Source of the DNA: an uncultured cyanobacterium | GTDB taxonomy: Bacteria > Cyanobacteriota > Cyanobacteriia > Cyanobacteriales > Cyanobacteriaceae | Reading direction: 5' to 3' | Assembly: GCA_963710605.1 (NCBI GenBank) | Contig: CAVQBA010000006.1 | Location: 160,001-224,000, forward strand | Length of the DNA: 64,000 nucleotides | Shown: piece by piece, positions 2,342 to 25,939 of the stretch | Layout: each line of letters begins with the position of its first letter | Numbering within the stretch: position 1 is the first letter of the stretch | Position numbers and translations under genes: made by a program | Notes under the pieces: model-generated | Told to the model about the DNA's origin: nothing | Database searches by the model: none | Seen by the model: only the letters and a program-made list of their open reading frames with translations

Positions 2342-2676
2342 ATCGTTTCAAATAATAATAAGATAATTTATGGTTAAGAATCTTAGTTTAATTTATTAAA
2401 CGGATAAGTGTTAGCCTTAAATGGCAATTTAAGGCGGGTTTTATCCTCAAATTTGACCGATCATTATTGATATCTCAGTTTAAATATTACTGACTGTTAT
2501 CAATCAACTACTGTACTTACCTTTGCCCTTTGCACGAGTGCCCTTTGCCCTTTGTTGACAAATTGTCAATCGTTTCTTGATTATACTCTCTACCAAATTA
2601 TTTAAACTAGTCATCTTATCTAATTAGCGATCATTTGTTTGTTACACAATTAGCGATTATCCAACAGCTTAATTAA

Positions 2677-2773
2677 TCCCCCTCCTTTGAAAGGAGGGGT
2701 TAGGGGTGGTTATTTCCCTATTTAAATAGGGTTAGGGGTGGTTATTTCCCCATTTAAAGAGGGGTTAGGGGTG
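2677..2773. repeat. Three tandem REP-like units (hairpin + GGGTTAGGGGTG tail)
   Basis: The first unit recurs almost identically at 45592-45627. Confidence 0.75.
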
Positions 2774-2774
2774 T

Positions 2775-4703
2775 TTATTTACCTACACCAACCGAAGTTT
2801 CTTCTTCTTGTTTAGCAAACCAAGAATTTAAGATTTGTTCGGCGATTTGAGGAGGAGTTAAACCTAAATCATAATAAGACTCATCAGGTTTAGCATGATC
2901 GACTAATTTGTCAGGAATACCAATACGTTTGAACTGAGGAGTCAAGATCGTTGTCGAATAAAGCTTCAGCGACGGCTGAGCCAAATCCACCCATAATGCA
3001 ACCTTCTTCTAAAGTCACAACTTTACCAATTTTTTCAGCTAAAGGTAAAATCAAGTCAGTATCTAAAGGTTTGACAAAACGAGCATTAACTACAGTTGCT
3101 TCTATTCCATGCTCACTTAGTATTTCCGCCGCTTGCATCGAAACATTAACCATTGTGCCATAACCTAAAAGTAATAAATCATCACCTTGGCGTAAAATTT
3201 CACCTTTACCAATTTCGATTTCTTCCCAACCTTCCTCGGCTAAGACAACACCAATACCACTACCACGAGGATAACGCATAGCGATCGCACTTTCAGTATG
3301 ATTAATACCTGTTACCACCATTCTTTGTAGCTCAGCTTCGTCTTTAGGTGCCATCACTACTAAGTTAGGAATACAACGCAGGTAAGCAATATCATATACC
3401 CCTTGGTGAGTTGGGCCATCTGGCCGACAATACCTGCTCTATCTAAACAGAAAAATACAGGTAATTTTTGAATACAAACATCATGAATAATTTGGTCAAA
3501 AGCCCGTTGCAAGAAAGTAGAATAAATAGTCGCAACTGGACGCATACCTTCACAAGCTAAACCTGCGGCAAGAGTAATTGCGTGTTGCTCGGCAATACCA
3601 ACATCGATATATTGCTTAGGTAATTTTTGTTGTAATTTAACTAAACCTGTACCTGTACCCATCGCCGCTGTAATTGCAATAATTTTGGGGTTATTTTCAG
3701 CCAACTTCGTTAAAGTATGAGTAAAAACTTTAGAATAACTAGGTGGTTTTGGTTTACTTGAAGGAATTGGTTTACCTGTAATTAAATTGAAGGGATTTTG
3801 AGCATGATAACCAACTTGATCTTTTTCAGCGACGGCATAACCTTTACCTTTAACTGTCGCTACATGGACGAATACTGGTCCTTTTACTTTATGAGCTTTT
3901 TTAAAAGTCTCAATTAACTCAGCTAAATTATGCCCATCAATCGGACCAAAATAAGTAAAACCTAATTCTTCAATTACAGCACCGACTTTAGGCATCGCTA
4001 CTCTTTTCATTGCTTCTTTGAGGTTGATCATTTCAGGAGAAAGATTTTTACCATCACCAAACAATGGAAAATGTTTGAATTGCTCTTCGAGGTTATCAGT
4101 GATAAATTGAACAGGATCTGATAAACGAACTTTATTCAAATAACGAGAAATTGCTCCCACATTAGGAGAAATAGACATATCGTTATCATTAAGCACTACC
4201 ATCAAATTAGTATTGGGTAAATGTCCTGCGTGGTTAATTGCTTCTAATGCCATTCCACCTGTTAAGGCACCATCACCGATAATGGAAACTACTTTGAAGT
4301 TTTCGCCTTTACTATCTCTAGCTAAAGCCATACCTAACCCAGCAGAAATACTTGTAGAGGCGTGTCCTGCTCCGAAATGATCAAATTTGCTCTCACTACG
4401 TTTTAGATACCCCGCAACACCTTTTTTTTGTCTTAAGGTATGGAAATCATTGTATCTACCCGTTAGCATTTTATGAGGATAAGCTTGATGCCCTACGTCC
4501 CAAATTACTTTATCGTGGTCTAAGTCTAAAGTTTGATATAATCCGATGGTTAATTCTACTACTCCTAATCCCGGCCCTAGATGTCCTCCTGTGGCTGCGA
4601 TCGTTTCTAGGTGTTTTTCTCTGATTTGTTTGGCAACATCTTCTAACTGCCTAACAGAGAGTCCGTGTAATTGATTGGGATGAGTAATTTCACTTATCTG
4701 CAT
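2775..4703 (-). CDS. dxs: 1-deoxy-D-xylulose-5-phosphate synthase, split by two frameshifts (about 3422 and 2935)
   Basis: [31 protein letters not shown] and RYPRG; three consecutive ORFs rebuild the full protein. Confidence 0.93.
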
Positions 4704-21441: not shown

Positions 21442-21806
21442 AAGTATAAATGCAAGATTGATAAGACGTTTTGAATAATGAGAGTGCTTTGTTTATGTTT
21501 TACTCTTAATATTCCTTCACCTAGTTTAGAGTAATTACTCTTGTTTTATCGCCAATAAAAAAACTCATTCGATCGTATAATGACTTTGATAATGATTGTT
21601 CTCAGTATAGTCTTTGTGTGACTACAAAACTTAGTTTGATAAAAATATTGTCTAATTCTCAATTATCTCAATTATTAGAGTAAAGTAATGACTAACTTTG
21701 GATATCATTTGGTAATTTTTACTGAATTGAATATAATTTATTCTTTATGTTTAATATTTCCAATATTGTGTCATCGATGATTATTTCTTCAATAACAGGG
21801 GCGGAG

Positions 21807-22046
21807 TTATTAACTAAAACGGTGACGGTAGCTTGATTAGAAAGATTACCATCGTTATCTTCTACAGTATAGGTAAATCGATCGAGTCCTACAAACTCGC
21901 TATTAGGTTGATAGTCAACTATGCCTTGTGAATTAACTGTGATAACGCCGTTACTAGGTTGGCTCGTTATTTGTAAGCTATTAGGTATTAATGTACCATC
22001 ACGATCGCTATCATTGGCTAAGACATCGATGGCGATATTTTCTCCT
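21807..22046. repeat. 240-bp direct repeat, copy 1 (Ig-like domain)
   Basis: Closely matches 24213-24453. Confidence 0.85.
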
Positions 22047-23404
22047 TGGTTTATGGAGATTAAATCGTTGAGGGCTAATGGGGCAGTAACGGACTGATTG
22101 TCGATTTTTACGTTATCGAGATAAATTGTCGAATCTGCGTCACCAAAGCCTAATAAATCAAAATAGAGAGTAACTTCAGTACCCGATGGTATGTCAGAAA
22201 TATCAACAGTAACAGTTTCATTAATTGTCAATTGTCCATTGTCCATTGTCAATTGCTCACCGCTGGATGTGCCACCAATTCTAACTCGATCGTCGAAGTA
22301 GGCTGTGCCGTCGTTTTGCAGGTTGAAGAAGCTATCGGTATTTGATAAAGTATTACCGAGAATTGGTTGGTTGGTGTTGGCATCAAGAAGAGCTACTTCA
22401 AAGGCATCTGGTGGTAGAATCGTGTTGTTGGTATCGCCATTACCTAGTTGGGCGTTAAAGCTAAATTGTAAGGTTTGACTATTTTCAGGGACGATAAAGC
22501 TTTGGGTGAAGTTACTTAAATAGGAAGAGTCTTCGGTGAGAATTGCTCGATCGTTTTTGACGGTAGCGGCACCTCGGTTATTCCAGCCATAATCAGGGTT
22601 TGTATTGTTACTAATAGCAAAGTCACCGTTAAGGATTTCTGCCATCAATCCACTAGAGGTTAGTGGTGCGGTGAGGGAGATTCCCACCTCTTCTTCGGAA
22701 GGAGAAAGGCTATTGCTGAGGTTGAAATCTAGAGAAGAATCCCCCCTAGCCCCCCTTTGTAAGGGGGGAACAAGATCGTGGTCGTGGTTGTCCGTTTGAG
22801 GTATTAGGGTATGATAAGTGTCGGTTTTTGTATTTTGAATTGCGTTGAGTATTAAGACGTTGATATCAGAAGGAAGTTTACGGATACTAGGGGCGAGATG
22901 GGTATTTAATAAGTCATGGGGGTGAGCTCGTTTGTCTAAATGTGAACCATCTACTGAGAGCAAGGCAGTAAAGTTATCGCCGATAAAGGTACGTTTACCA
23001 TTTTTATAACGAACATTTTTATCAAATTCTGAATAACCACCCATGAAGCCATAAAGGTGTGCGGCTTCGTGGAGGATAGTGGTAAGGAGATCGTATTTAC
23101 CATATGCTGGGGAGTCGGGAGTGGCTTGAAATGCCCAATCTGTATTATTGATACTGTATTCTTCGTTGGCGAAGGGTGTTTGGTCGATAAACCAGCCGGC
23201 ACCGTTAGCATCATGATCGATTTTAATAATACCAGCGTTAGGTTTACCTTGAGAGTCGAAACCTGTTATGGTAGCTTCTGCTAGTTGTCCAGAAGGTAAG
23301 TCTTTTATTTCATAAGTGATGTCTATATCTGTTTGGGGTATAAGGGTTGACCAGATGTGGTTTACGCTATTATTTAGTTGGTTAAGCGTTTGGAGATTTG
23401 AATT

Positions 23405-23938
23405 ATGGATATTACTGCCGAAGAATTGGTCAGAAGATATGAGGCTGGGGAACGTGATTTTCGAGGTATTATTTTGCAGTACACCAGTTTGAATGGAGTT
23501 CAATTTGAAGAGGTTGATTTCCGAGGAGCGATTTTTAATAATATCTCGTTTGGCACCATTAAATTCGTTCCAACTAAGTTTATTAATTGTAATCTCTCCT
23601 GTACTGAGTGGTGGTTTTGTGGTTTGCCCCCACTGTTTGGATGTAATTTGCAATACTCTATCATAGAATCTTGTTATTTTGGAGATACTTTTGTTGATTG
23701 CGATTGGAGAAATAGTCAAATTAGTTGTCCCACCTTTGATGACGTTATTTTCGATAGGTGTAACTTGACTGGGCAAAGAGAAGCCAAAGGAACTGGTCAT
23801 TTTCTTTCTGGTGAAGTGATTGGACTCCAAAACTTTGGAATTGGTCTTAAAAACACTTTCGATAGAAATGGTGTTTTTCACTCTGGTATCTTTTGTCGAT
23901 GGCCTCGTAGAAGTCTTCTGCAATATCCGATTAGATAA
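23405..23938 (+). CDS. Pentapeptide-repeat-family protein nested antisense in the 21719-24085 frame
   Basis: Typical N-terminus MDITAEELVRRYEAGERDFRG, degenerate pentapeptide repeats and a GGAG SD about 9 nt upstream of the ATG. Confidence 0.85.
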   Translation: MDITAEELVRRYEAGERDFRGIILQYTSLNGVQFEEVDFRGAIFNNISFGTIKFVPTKFINCNLSCTEWWFCGLPPLFGCNLQYSIIESCYFGDTFVDCDWRNSQISCPTFDDVIFDRCNLTGQREAKGTGHFLSGEVIGLQNFGIGLKNTFDRNGVFHSGIFCRWPRRSLLQYPIR

Positions 23939-24212
23939 TAAATTAGCAGAATTATTAGAAGGTGAAGGTATTGTTATGATATTTAAATTTGTGAGATTAA
24001 ATATTTGATTAAAGTCAAAACGAGGTAAGTTGATTTGATTGTTTGGACTATTTAGAATATTTTGTAATTCTGATAATCCTATCAACCATACATGAGGATC
24101 TCTCCATTCGCTGAAGTTATCAATAGCGATAGAGCTCGCTTGTAGGGTGCGTTCTCTTAAACCGTTACATATTTAAGACGATCCCATATAGCAAAGAACG
24201 CACCACCCTTGT

Positions 24213-24453
24213 TTATTCACTAAAACGGTGACAGTAGCTTGATTAAAAAGATTACCATCGTTATCTTCGCTATGTATAGGTAAATCGATCGATTCCTACA
24301 AACTGATTATTAGGTTGATACTCAACTATGCCTTGTGAATTAACTGTGATAACGGCGTTATTAGGTTGACTAGTTATTTGCAAGCTATTAGGTATTAATG
24401 TACTATCACGATCGCTATCGTTAGCTAAGACATCGATGGCGATATTTTCTCCT
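24213..24453 (-). pseudogene. Second copy of the Ig-like domain with a +1 frameshift/stop
   Basis: AIDVLANDSDRDSTLIPNSLQITSQP...FTYT*, continuing out of frame as EDNDGNL.NQATVTVLVN. Confidence 0.8.
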
Positions 24454-24481: not shown

Positions 24482-25783
24482 TTAAACACCATAAGGAAGC
24501 CCCTCACTATTAGATAAAGGAGGAGTCACACCATCTGGCACACCTAACTCATAGGTACGTCCTACTACATTAGTTTCAACTAATTGTAAACCTGCGGCAA
24601 CATCAATTAAAGGCTCAATATCATCGATCGGTTTACTTTTGAGATCGCTAGGATTATCATTTACAGTCTTAATAATCTGTTGAATATCAAAGATAAAAGT
24701 ACTAGCCGCAAAAGGATAAGTAGCATAGAGATAGCGATCGTTTCCAGAGACAGTTAAGCTAGTAGCGATCGCCCCTGGTACCGGTCTGGTGGCGGCAACT
24801 AGTTCAGGATTACTACCTAATGGATTTTTGATAATACCAATATTACTACCAGCAAACTCATCACTGATACTTGGAATGGTACTACCTAAATTGCGACCAT
24901 TACGCCCAACCACAAACCCATATTCAGTTCCAGTTATCTCATCATAAACAATCGTGACATCAACAGCCTCATTAACATCAAAGTAATCGTTAGTGCTACC
25001 AAGATTTAAGCCAGCATAATTAACCTTCATGGTAAAAGCATTAGAATCGTTGTTGGTAATAGTTAAAACACCATAACCTTGAGATTCATTTGCTCTGTTT
25101 GTAAATGCCATTTTCGAGTCACTAGGAGTATCAGAAATAGCTTTGACACCACTACCAACCTTGATAATACCGATTTGTTCGTGCCAACGGAAAAGATTAT
25201 TGAAACTGCTTATCGGTTGCTCATCGGGATTAATATTGATTGCCACAATATAACCATCACCCAAACTCCGATAACTACCTAAAGTAACAAAAAGACGATC
25301 GCCTTGATTGTTAATAGCAATATCTTGAATGTTGACATCATCAGTAGGAACATTCAGATTAATATTAGCAATATGTTGATTGTAAGTATCCGAATTAGCA
25401 TCAATATCAACTACATAGATCAGATTTTGATCACGATCGCTAATATAAGCATATCGATCGTTTTTACTAATGGTAATCGATCGAGGTACAGAACCCGCAG
25501 GTAAAGGAATCGGGTCAATTTGACTAGTATTAAGATTACCATCTAACTGCTTGAATGCCAGTAAATCAACCACCGCTACACTAGAAGAAGTTTCTAAAGG
25601 TACGTATAAACGAGAAGCCTTATTTGTAGGGGCAGAGAAGCGAGGAGTATCTTGAACAGCAGATGTACCTACGCCAATACTAGCTAAGAGAAGATTACCC
25701 ACACCATCAGTTTCAATAACTGTCTTTGGATTACTTGAGTTAATAATATTAACACGATCGGCAAAAGGTATAGTTGCGATCGC
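24482..25783 (-). pseudogene. YncE/YVTN-like beta-propeller fragment of a giant secreted protein
   Basis: RLYVP..SSSVAVVD, DRYAYISDR..IYVVD and DRYLYATY; no signal peptide; the frame runs upstream through a HIP1 site at 25776. Confidence 0.65.
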
Positions 25784-25939
25784 AAAATCAAATCCTAATT
25801 CTTCAAGGAAAGTTAGTCAAGGCTTTTAATGATAAAAAAGTAATCTTAAAAGAAGCTAGAGATAGTTATATTCAAATATTTTTTTTATAGTGCTAAACTA
25901 ACTATTGATACTGTCTGTAATCAAGAAGCACATAAAAAA

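Follow-up and report, generated by a model that had tools for sequence, protein, structure and literature searches.

A pentapeptide-repeat gene antisense to the linker of a metzincin-like host protein: a probable case of conserved dual coding in cyanobacteria

Introduction

Can the same base pairs encode a repeat protein of an old family on one strand and part of a large secreted protein on the other, and are both readings held by selection? The question is raised by two nested genes in a stretch of 64,000 nucleotides (the window, C6:160001-224000) from the genome of an uncultured cyanobacterium (3.93 Mb, 33% GC). Here a complete gene for a pentapeptide-repeat protein (PRP) lies on the plus strand inside a much longer open reading frame (ORF) of the minus strand, termed host ORF in the following. 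Opposite-strand dual coding in bacteria is still disputed, and most of the proposed cases are young, known from one strain and based on expression data alone. For the present locus, sequence comparison led us to a probability of roughly 0.8 that the region is a genuine case of antisense dual coding, passed on as a module that is conserved across many cyanobacterial genera. The elements on which the argument depends are the following:

23405..23938, plus strand: PRP gene of the HetL/Np275-276 type, 177 aa plus stop; the primary coding frame
23392..23395, plus strand: GGAG, Shine-Dalgarno-like (SD-like) tract, 9 nt 5' of the PRP ATG
21719..24172, minus strand: host ORF, stop to stop, 817 codons; remnant, truncated at two ends, of a giant secreted protein
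23405..23938, minus strand: linker segment of the host ORF, aa 79-256 of 817; antisense of the PRP codons
22829..23404, minus strand: metzincin-like zinc-peptidase domain; HEAAH motif at 23057-23071, invariant His 39 residues later

Results and Discussion

The Nested Gene Pair

The existence of a 177-aa PRP gene with its own SD and a family-typical N-terminus had been claimed in an earlier note on this DNA, and the ORF, the GGAG tract, the Pfam match to PF00805 (23405-23935, plus strand; 35.1 bits at a cut-off of 20.2) and the N-terminal cap motif, whose family consensus is EELLxRYAAGERDF, all agree with it. Tandem A(D/N)LXX pentads scoring above the Pfam threshold place the product in the pentapeptide-repeat family. 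The gene lies wholly within the minus-strand ORF and the codons of both are exactly antiparallel, as the ORF map and a check of the register confirmed.

A profile built from 61 nested PRPs of the kind described below matched 42 solved sequences at E up to 0.001. The majority bear the name of pentapeptide-repeat proteins, and the matches include Qnr, MfpA and McbG-like chains. The best matches, to E 1e-60, were chains named beta1; HetL (All3740, 3du1) was matched at E 2e-56 and 2j8k, a structure of the Np275/Np276 type, at 5e-56, in each case from profile position 4, that is from the cap onward. From the similarity to 3du1 and 2j8k we infer that the PRP would adopt the right-handed quadrilateral beta-helix fold.

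The Antisense Frame Is Open beyond Chance

With the codons in antiparallel register, every TTA, CTA or TCA codon of the PRP is a stop in the host frame. Codon usage measured on 1261 long ORFs of the genome gave TTA 58.5% and CTA 9.1% of Leu codons and TCA 18.3% of Ser codons. The 13 Leu codons of the window PRP nevertheless comprise TTG (6), CTT (3), CTC (2) and CTG (2) with neither TTA nor CTA, and none of its ten Ser codons is TCA, an absence already pointed out in the earlier note in view of the dominance of TTA. The gene is likewise free of GTA (0 of 8), ACA (0 of 10) and GCA (0 of 4). When the PRP protein was kept fixed and synonymous codons were drawn by genome usage, the antisense frame was open with P = 5.8e-8, and the converse calculation for the minus segment gave P = 2.7e-8; the codon permutation proposed as a check thus does not yield an open antisense frame frequently. 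As an empirical null we determined the longest in-register antisense open run of all 1261 ORFs of at least 300 aa (641,055 codons), which has a median of 45, a 99th percentile of 109 and a maximum of 184 codons. Horizontal gene transfer was considered as a source of the odd codon usage and ruled out: since the two-fold codons of the PRP (TTT, AAT, GAT, GAA, CAA) follow genome usage, a foreign origin fails to explain the pattern. Three ORFs within the null set reach antisense open runs of 150, 155 and 184 codons (lengths 583, 2793 and 1189 aa, respectively); these could be further dual-coding candidates or low-complexity genes.

Two Classes of PRPs in the Same Genome

The genome itself offers an internal comparison. 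PF00805 matches 159 places, and 48 of the listed places together with two further PRP places collapsed to 50 distinct ORFs. The PRP ORFs split into an ordinary class A (27 ORFs) and a class B (19 ORFs). In class A, TTA makes up 59% of Leu codons, and the antisense open runs are mostly about 18-54 codons long with a maximum of 93. The members of class B (126-266 aa) carry the N-terminal cap, have at most one TTA, CTA or TCA codon each, and their antisense frame is open over all or nearly all of the gene. In the pooled 3401 codons, TTA occurs 7 times and CTA once among 353 Leu codons, and TCA is absent from 240 Ser codons. Further codons are rare compared with the genome (GTA 4% vs. 30%, ACA 4% vs. 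29%, GCA 3% vs. 26%, ATA 8% vs. 19%), and the two-fold choices are genome-typical (AAA 84%, GAA 84%, CAA 89%; AAT and GAT also equal the genome). The avoidance of TTA is specific for the frame, with 7, 178 and 35 occurrences at offsets 0, 1 and 2, respectively.

About half of the class B PRPs lie antisense inside paralogues of the minus-strand protein of the window, and there the start of the HExxH region follows directly. When the PRP cap is read antisense it yields minus-frame motifs such as FPSSIISSEQFF, and ANLSG read in this way becomes a repeat of the STQIS type. One antisense stop each is present in seven of the 19 PRPs, five of which have no remnant of the peptidase region.

Conservation of the Module among Cyanobacteria

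A homologue search with the HExxH region (aa 250-560 of 817), which covered protein lengths of 449-1430 aa, yielded 188 homologues distributed over that range and cyanobacterial wherever named. Many of them carry Big_9, PKD, cadherin-like and DNA/RNA non-specific endonuclease domains. Twenty homologues were inspected by eye, and in 18 the signature of an antisense PRP stands directly N-terminal of the HExxH region; one of the other two has only the last residues of the signature, and one is annotated to start after it. In P0004, P0007, P0020 and P0040 the signature is internal, between nuclease and HExxH region, and P0020 contains three tandem signatures.

Scanning the host-protein alignment against one genome per species resulted in 79 loci. 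They include Waterburya, Xenococcus, Myxosarcina, Tolypothrix, Calothrix, Rivularia, Richelia, Crocosphaera, Nostoc and Dolichospermum as well as Acaryochloris, Chamaesiphon, Altericista, Desertifilum, Symploca, Thermosynechococcaceae, Pseudanabaenaceae and others. With a Hidden Markov Model (HMM) of the class B PRPs, 85 ORFs of the opposite strand (stop to stop, at least 80 aa) were detected in 75 of the 79 loci, positioned just 5' of the HExxH domain. In 80 of the 85 cases the PRP ORF is spanned completely by an in-register ORF of the host strand, and the HExxH motif is part of that ORF in 64; many of these host ORFs run beyond the edge of the 10-kb locus at more than 2400-3300 aa. Stops in the minus frame of homologous loci had been named as the observation that would overturn the earlier note, and the frame proved to be open in these 80 ORFs. 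Counted over the PRP spans (16,136 codons), stops occur at 1.3 per 1000 codons in the in-register host frame and at 24-115 in the four other non-PRP frames. Both frames are thus open beyond chance over the whole overlap, in the window by the codon calculation and in the homologous loci by count.

The PRP is likewise conserved as a gene. Near full length are 67 of the 80 nested PRPs, 66 of them with a start codon at the expected place. The cap motif is found in 74 of the 80, and in 69 an ATG lies at most 14 codons from the cap. An SD-like tract at -17 to -5 precedes 53 of these 69 ATGs, compared with 13.7% (1028/7487) of other same-strand ATGs. The C-terminal MPDG motif is conserved in the same way as cap, ATG and SD.

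A special arrangement is found in L058, the metagenome-assembled genome (MAG) Cyanobacteria bacterium J06648_1, where positions 2597-4060 contain three tandem antisense PRPs between nuclease and peptidase of one host ORF, with PRP-frame identities of 69-80% among the three.

Selection on the Two Reading Frames

The constraint on each frame can be read from the codon positions at which relatives differ. In the closest class B pair (C6:565285 vs. C6:566068) the differences at PRP codon positions 1/2/3 number 14/15/38, and the differing codons are synonymous in the PRP frame in 22 cases and in the antisense frame in four. Between the window PRP and its orthologue in genome G037 (locus L002, another family), identity is 57% for the PRP reading and 40% for the antisense reading, with differences of 51/45/81 at the three positions. 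Nei-Gojobori counting was applied to 99 sequences, with either protein guiding the alignment. For the 45 closest pairs the substitutions were 1677/1268/2779 (PRP-guided) and 1800/1293/2739 (antisense-guided), and pN/pS, a measure that in its standard form is biased in overlapping frames, was mostly 0.13-0.45 in the PRP frame and mostly 0.6-1.4, i.e., about 1, in the antisense frame. A coding frame does not change fastest at its first position, as the antisense frame would have to here; the constrained sequence is therefore that of the PRP, and the antisense reading drifts.

These counts also bear on the reverse reading, that only the minus frame is a genuine gene, the PRP being an accidental mirror of a five-residue repeat in the host protein. 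The antisense of the pentapeptide repeats is indeed five-residue periodic itself, and gene callers have chosen the minus ORF, so that the protein collection holds a 788-aa minus protein and no row of 100% identity for the PRP. Substitutions that concentrate at PRP position 3, which is host position 1, are nevertheless not produced by any coding minus frame, and neither the conservation of cap, MPDG, ATG and SD, nor a profile match to solved PRPs, nor a host segment predicted to be disordered is expected from a mirror. We regard this reading as scarcely credible, the least probable of those weighed here.

The host frame bears a mark of its own, which lies in its composition. The linker of the window is rich in Ser, Thr, Ile and Gln and contains no Cys and a single Tyr. 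In the antisense-PRP segments of all loci Cys amounts to 0.2% and Tyr to 0.6%, and in the remaining 92,608 aa of the host ORFs Cys amounts to 0.1%; the antisense of ordinary PRPs would yield 3.1% Cys and 10.8% stops, and the nested PRPs themselves contain 2.2% Cys. In codon terms, ACA and GCA are read as Cys and GTA and ATA as Tyr on the opposite strand, and in comparison with the peptidase-coding part of the same genes the nested PRPs are depleted in ACA (2.2% vs. 17.1%), GCA (1.5% vs. 27.7%) and GTA (5.2% vs. 24.1%). CCA, whose antisense is the Trp codon TGG, is undepleted (23.9% vs. 22.9%). Avoidance of near-stop codons as the cause of the NYA depletion is ruled out by this codon. With the codons for antisense Cys or Tyr depleted and CCA not, the pattern agrees with protein-level selection on the host frame. 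Selection is therefore visible on both frames, as low pN/pS in the PRP and as loss of stop, Cys and Tyr codons in the host frame, and the earlier suggestion that both strands are kept open by selection is supported by codon avoidance, frame specificity and conservation as well as by this depletion.

The same data allow a judgement on whether the minus frame is an unselected shadow ORF, produced by PRP composition and codon bias as opposite dnaK. Long antiparallel ORFs opposite conserved genes are known and, according to bioRxiv 10.1101/724807, usually unselected; the same source describes the ORF opposite dnaK ('NAD-GDH', PF10712) as long, conserved across species, explained by codon bias and free of selection. 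An antisense pN/pS of about 1 would fit such a case. Here, however, codon usage is distorted against the genome bias, and the distortion is confined to the eight NYA codons in this one frame; ordinary PRPs of the same genome have antisense stops at the 10.8% given above. Moreover, the open frame joins real domains in-frame in dozens of diverged loci, and Cys is avoided exactly as in the remaining host protein. A shadow ORF thus appears very improbable.

In this reading, the plus strand encodes an independently initiated PRP of the HetL/Np275-276 type under purifying selection, and the minus strand uses the same codons backwards for a linker of about 180 aa, predicted to be disordered, in a large secreted multidomain protein. 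The sequence of this linker drifts, with selection purging only stops (PRP codons TTA, CTA, TCA) and Cys/Tyr codons (ACA, GCA, GTA, ATA). The PRP was presumably there first and would have been overprinted when read-through joined an upstream nuclease gene to a downstream peptidase gene, which is possible because the antisense frame of a PRP can be opened by synonymous changes alone. In the window, the host gene is truncated at both ends and the PRP is intact.

The Host Protein

C-terminal of the peptidase domain two further parts of the window host ORF can be recognized:

22106..22678, minus strand: conserved region C-terminal of the peptidase domain; conserved alignment columns, no Pfam match
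21818..22084, minus strand: Big_9/cadherin-like bacterial Ig domain; Pfam PF17963, 68.3 bits, aa 668-756 of the 788-aa form

Intact relatives are larger. In four long host ORFs, Pfam gave the order N-terminal region, Endonuclease_NS, antisense-PRP segment, HExxH region, Big_9, PKD repeats and Calx-beta. An HMM of the nuclease matched, as whole domain or C-terminal remnant, in 49 of 83 in-register ORFs of the host strand, and the nuclease ends 10-64 codons (mostly 20-30) before the PRP stop codon. Two complete plasmids carry host genes of more than 10,000 aa: a single annotated coding sequence spans the nested PRP in Calothrix sp. NIES-4105 (L102, AP018293.1; 34,794 nt) and in Calothrix sp. PCC 7716 (L103, AP025023.1; 30,984 nt), the PRP positions having been converted from L030 and L033. 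In both plasmids a small hypothetical gene separates the giant gene from a gene for a toxin-secretion ABC transporter, presumably of type I secretion, and the plasmid of PCC 7716 has a leukotoxin-secretion-like gene further along. The real domains joined on either side of the segment, the single coding sequences across the PRP and the matching low Cys content argue for translation of the host frame through the overlap. The word plasmid appears in the record titles of seven of the 79 loci.

That the antisense-derived segment is a linker ahead of the HExxH and Ig domains had been stated in the earlier note and agrees with structure prediction. AlphaFold2, run on the window segment with 55 aligned sequences, left the overlap free of secondary structure (pLDDT about 40), and helices with a pLDDT of about 76 begin at the start of the peptidase region. 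The segment is accordingly predicted to behave as a disordered linker. A second beta-helix formed by the pentad-periodic STQIS repeats was considered as well and rejected, as AlphaFold2 gives no structure, in what is a low-confidence model.

In the HExxH domain the alignment shows invariant residues H, E, H, G and G, followed by the His 39 residues on. The AlphaFold2 model of the domain (pLDDT 73.5, pTM 0.73) had leishmanolysin (1lml) as best Foldseek match, at E 7e-4, probability 1.00 and a TM-score of 0.44 normalised to the query; catalytic domains of matrix metalloproteinases (MMP) followed with weaker scores. By sequence, the best match of the domain among solved chains had an E of 0.53, and Pfam gave no match. 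The model and the HExxH motif with its distal invariant His thus resemble leishmanolysin (M8) and the MMP metzincins, from which the domain differs in the missing sequence-level match and the low TM-scores. We call it metzincin-like, with membership in that group not established.

Relation of the PRP to the Adjoining Nuclease

In intact relatives the PRP gene directly adjoins the end of the nuclease domain, and the earlier note had proposed an internal toxin domain in the protein of the window. This part is not supported: the HExxH domain is metzincin-like and not an evident toxin, and Endonuclease_NS, present in homologous loci, is absent from the window locus. The better toxin candidate, as judged from domain order, would be the DNA/RNA non-specific endonuclease that directly precedes the nested PRP in intact relatives and is missing from the copies of this genome.

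PRPs are known as DNA mimics and immunity factors (Qnr, MfpA, McbG, AlbG), and NucA of Anabaena has a dedicated inhibitor, NuiA. NucA we take to belong to Pfam PF01223, the same family as the host nuclease. By analogy with NucA/NuiA, with McbG, AlbG, Qnr and MfpA and with polymorphic toxins, a small protein that is a candidate for protection would be encoded beside a harmful domain, here a nuclease of PF01223. A toxin-immunity role of the PRP is thus a plausible and reasonable hypothesis, better aimed at the nuclease than at the HExxH domain. Polymorphic toxins are arranged differently, with a variable toxin at the C-terminus and the immunity gene following immediately on the same strand. Here the nuclease occupies an internal position, and the candidate immunity gene is contained in the toxin gene itself, on the other strand.

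Probably, the function of the PRP is tied to the host protein. That it acts inside the cell against the adjacent nuclease domain, as inhibitor or immunity factor, is a tentative proposal, which we hold to be well short of even odds. Slightly more doubtful still is the complete picture, a conserved two-strand gene in which the PRP would be the producer's DNA-mimic inhibitor of the nuclease and orphan PRPs would be immunity genes surviving the decay of the toxin. If true, toxin and antidote would be written in the same base pairs, which would be a new genetic architecture for linking a toxin to its immunity factor. The mean pairwise identity is 42% for the PRP, 41% for the nuclease and 62% for the peptidase domain. 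Covariation of PRP and nuclease identity is weak (rho 0.14, reached in 30 of 500 shuffles; rho 0.22, reached in 29 of 1000; p about 0.03-0.06). A complex prediction for the nuclease domain of L041 with its nested PRP, both entered as alignments, scored 0.01 at a mark of 0.32, which is not evidence either way.

Covariation also touches on the possibility that the PRP is a selfish element, a kind of cassette passing from host gene to host gene with its antisense frame kept open to avoid breaking them. PRP divergence is indeed untracked by the metzincin-like domain (rho 0.07 over 50 loci; -0.07 and 0.11, not significant, in subsets), nuclease and metzincin-like domains do not track each other in these mosaic genes, three PRPs stand in tandem in L058, and many copies in the window's genome are repeat-bounded. 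Against mobility, the position between the nuclease end and the first peptidase helix is constant and the junction conserved, and neither transposase nor terminal repeats were seen with the PRP itself. We consider a moving cassette unlikely. Within the same host gene, nuclease and peptidase identity are correlated with rho -0.02 and -0.13 (24-27 loci among L023-L101); because the two domains do not co-diverge, the giant host genes appear to be recombinational mosaics.

State of the Window Copy and Orphan PRPs

The picture of an uninterrupted giant frame does not apply to the window, where the host ORF of 817 codons begins after a stop at 24172 with broken debris 5' of it and ends after one Ig domain, while relatives extend over thousands of residues. 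Two elements mark the 5' boundary:

24129..24223, strand not applicable: hairpin repeat of approximately 95 nt; 5' boundary of the host ORF, with blastn copies elsewhere in the genome
24270..24470, minus strand: broken Big_9 fragment, PF17963, 47.9 bits, with stop and frameshift; debris of a former larger gene

Pfam found no Endonuclease_NS in the window host ORF. The sole PF01223 match of the genome is a stand-alone ORF of 256 aa at C5:276186-276791, hence every host-gene copy in this genome is without nuclease. An HMM from four nuclease domains detected no nuclease remnant 5' of the antisense-PRP segments of the genome (E up to 10). By eye, a short stretch similar to the C-terminus of the nuclease was seen at C7:5546-6448 and C7:497848-499356, which is not significant.

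Several points weigh against dual coding as we propose it. Thirteen of the 80 nested PRP ORFs are not full length, and four of the 79 loci have no PRP match; the loci were chosen via the HExxH domain, many come from MAG contigs, and related loci are non-independent. Besides the bias of pN/pS mentioned above, both frames have a pN/pS of about 0.5-0.7 in a Chamaesiphon group (L050, L051, L062, L064, L065) and a Nostocales trio (L034, L041, L078), in which PRP constraint may be relaxed or linker constraint acquired. The PRP is unannotated in both plasmid records, whose feature tables are incomplete, its covariation with the nuclease is weak, and the whole case is known from sequence alone. In the window, the host ORF has no nuclease, one Ig domain and no clear start: the first TTG at 24085, which leads to the 788-aa form, has a GGAGAG rather far 5', and the first ATG, aa 96 of that form, lies inside the overlap. 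No host gene is intact in this genome, and the open minus frame of the window may be a recent fossil rather than a translated gene.

This last point, taken for itself, means that only the PRP is alive in the window, the minus ORF being a recently truncated pseudogene whose openness was inherited from a dual-coding ancestor. The cut at both ends (the stop at 24172, the hairpin repeat, the broken Big_9 5' of it), the single Ig domain, the lack of a nuclease domain and of a convincing start codon speak for it, as do the class B PRPs that already carry an antisense stop, mostly where the peptidase remnant is gone. On the other hand, 817 codons are still open at 33% GC and all invariant peptidase residues are kept. 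Of the 593 Leu and Ser codons in the 19 class B PRPs only eight are antisense stops, even though a single transition, favoured by the bias of the genome, turns TTG into TTA, and a relative of 618 aa with 77% identity shares the short architecture. We see a pseudogene in the window as a serious alternative, somewhat short of an even chance.

PRPs can persist on their own. In G037 the orthologous PRP lies in an open antisense ORF of 289 codons between housekeeping genes, and of the peptidase region only a short stretch resembling its C-terminal end is left (by eye); TTA is used for none of the 12 Leu codons of this PRP, compared with 41 of 87 in the flanking genes. As intact PRPs persist in the genome of the window and in G037 beside truncated or largely deleted hosts, PRPs outlive their host genes, and the assertion of the earlier note that the two cannot be separated has to be given up.

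Comparison with Known Systems

The PRP belongs to the same sequence family as HetL and Np275/Np276 (2j8k, 2j8i), N-terminal cap included. These proteins are described as products of ordinary stand-alone genes; the PRP here differs in being read antisense by the frame of another protein, with matching codon avoidance. A role of PRPs as DNA mimics or immunity factors is treated in PMC10886550.

Antisense overlapping pairs reported from bacteria comprise adm/dmdR1 (Streptomyces) and nog1/citC, pop/ompA, laoB, ano and asa (E. coli) (PMC7457138; PMC7103648; 10.1101/724807). They share with the present pair a protein-coding ORF embedded antisense within a protein-coding gene, and they are reported to be strain- or genus-restricted, with a young, weakly constrained embedded ORF and evidence mostly from expression and phenotype. 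In contrast, the gene embedded here comes from an old family, is under purifying selection and occurs in many genera, and the overprinter is a linker of the host. The case therefore adds to the dispute a structurally known family, conservation over many genera and a distinct, quantifiable mark of selection on each frame. It further shows a route to a de novo disordered linker, by overprinting of a repeat gene that can be opened antisense by silent changes. A full-text literature search, covering main texts, found no report of a PRP gene nested antisense in another gene, and the word pentapeptide does not occur in the first 300,000 of the 357,715 characters of Zhang et al., 2012 (PMC3482391).

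For annotation the locus exposes a gap: gene callers keep one of two genes, and the PRP is missing from the protein collection of the window as well as from the two plasmid annotations. The case is directly testable, as a single substitution that is silent for one protein can place a stop codon in the frame of the other.

Repeats and Neighbouring Sequences

A scan of 23100-24300 for promoters and terminators gave five promoter-like sites, with 4.0 expected, and no terminators. Just 5' of the broken Big_9 fragment, a minus-strand ORF of 444 codons (24482-25816) has a weak match (29.5 bits) to the beta-propeller family PF10282; this lactonase-type seven-bladed beta-propeller may be another piece of the former large gene.

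Elsewhere on C6 (565237-566871) two tandem PRP/antisense units are found, 82% identical in the PRP frame. Their host frames are cut just past the start of the peptidase region by a dispersed repeat with a translation like NVGCWVSLLFY, and strings resembling this repeat also flank other PRP/antisense copies in the genome. The hairpin repeat at the 5' boundary of the window host ORF is contained in a stretch (24140-24262) with a predicted folding energy of -27.4 kcal/mol. Its blastn copies at C7:499321-499415, C7:500290-500377, C2:137712-137799 and C6:258210-258282 bound other truncated copies. Because the repeat bounds several 5' ends, the truncated copies may have spread, or been cut, together with it.

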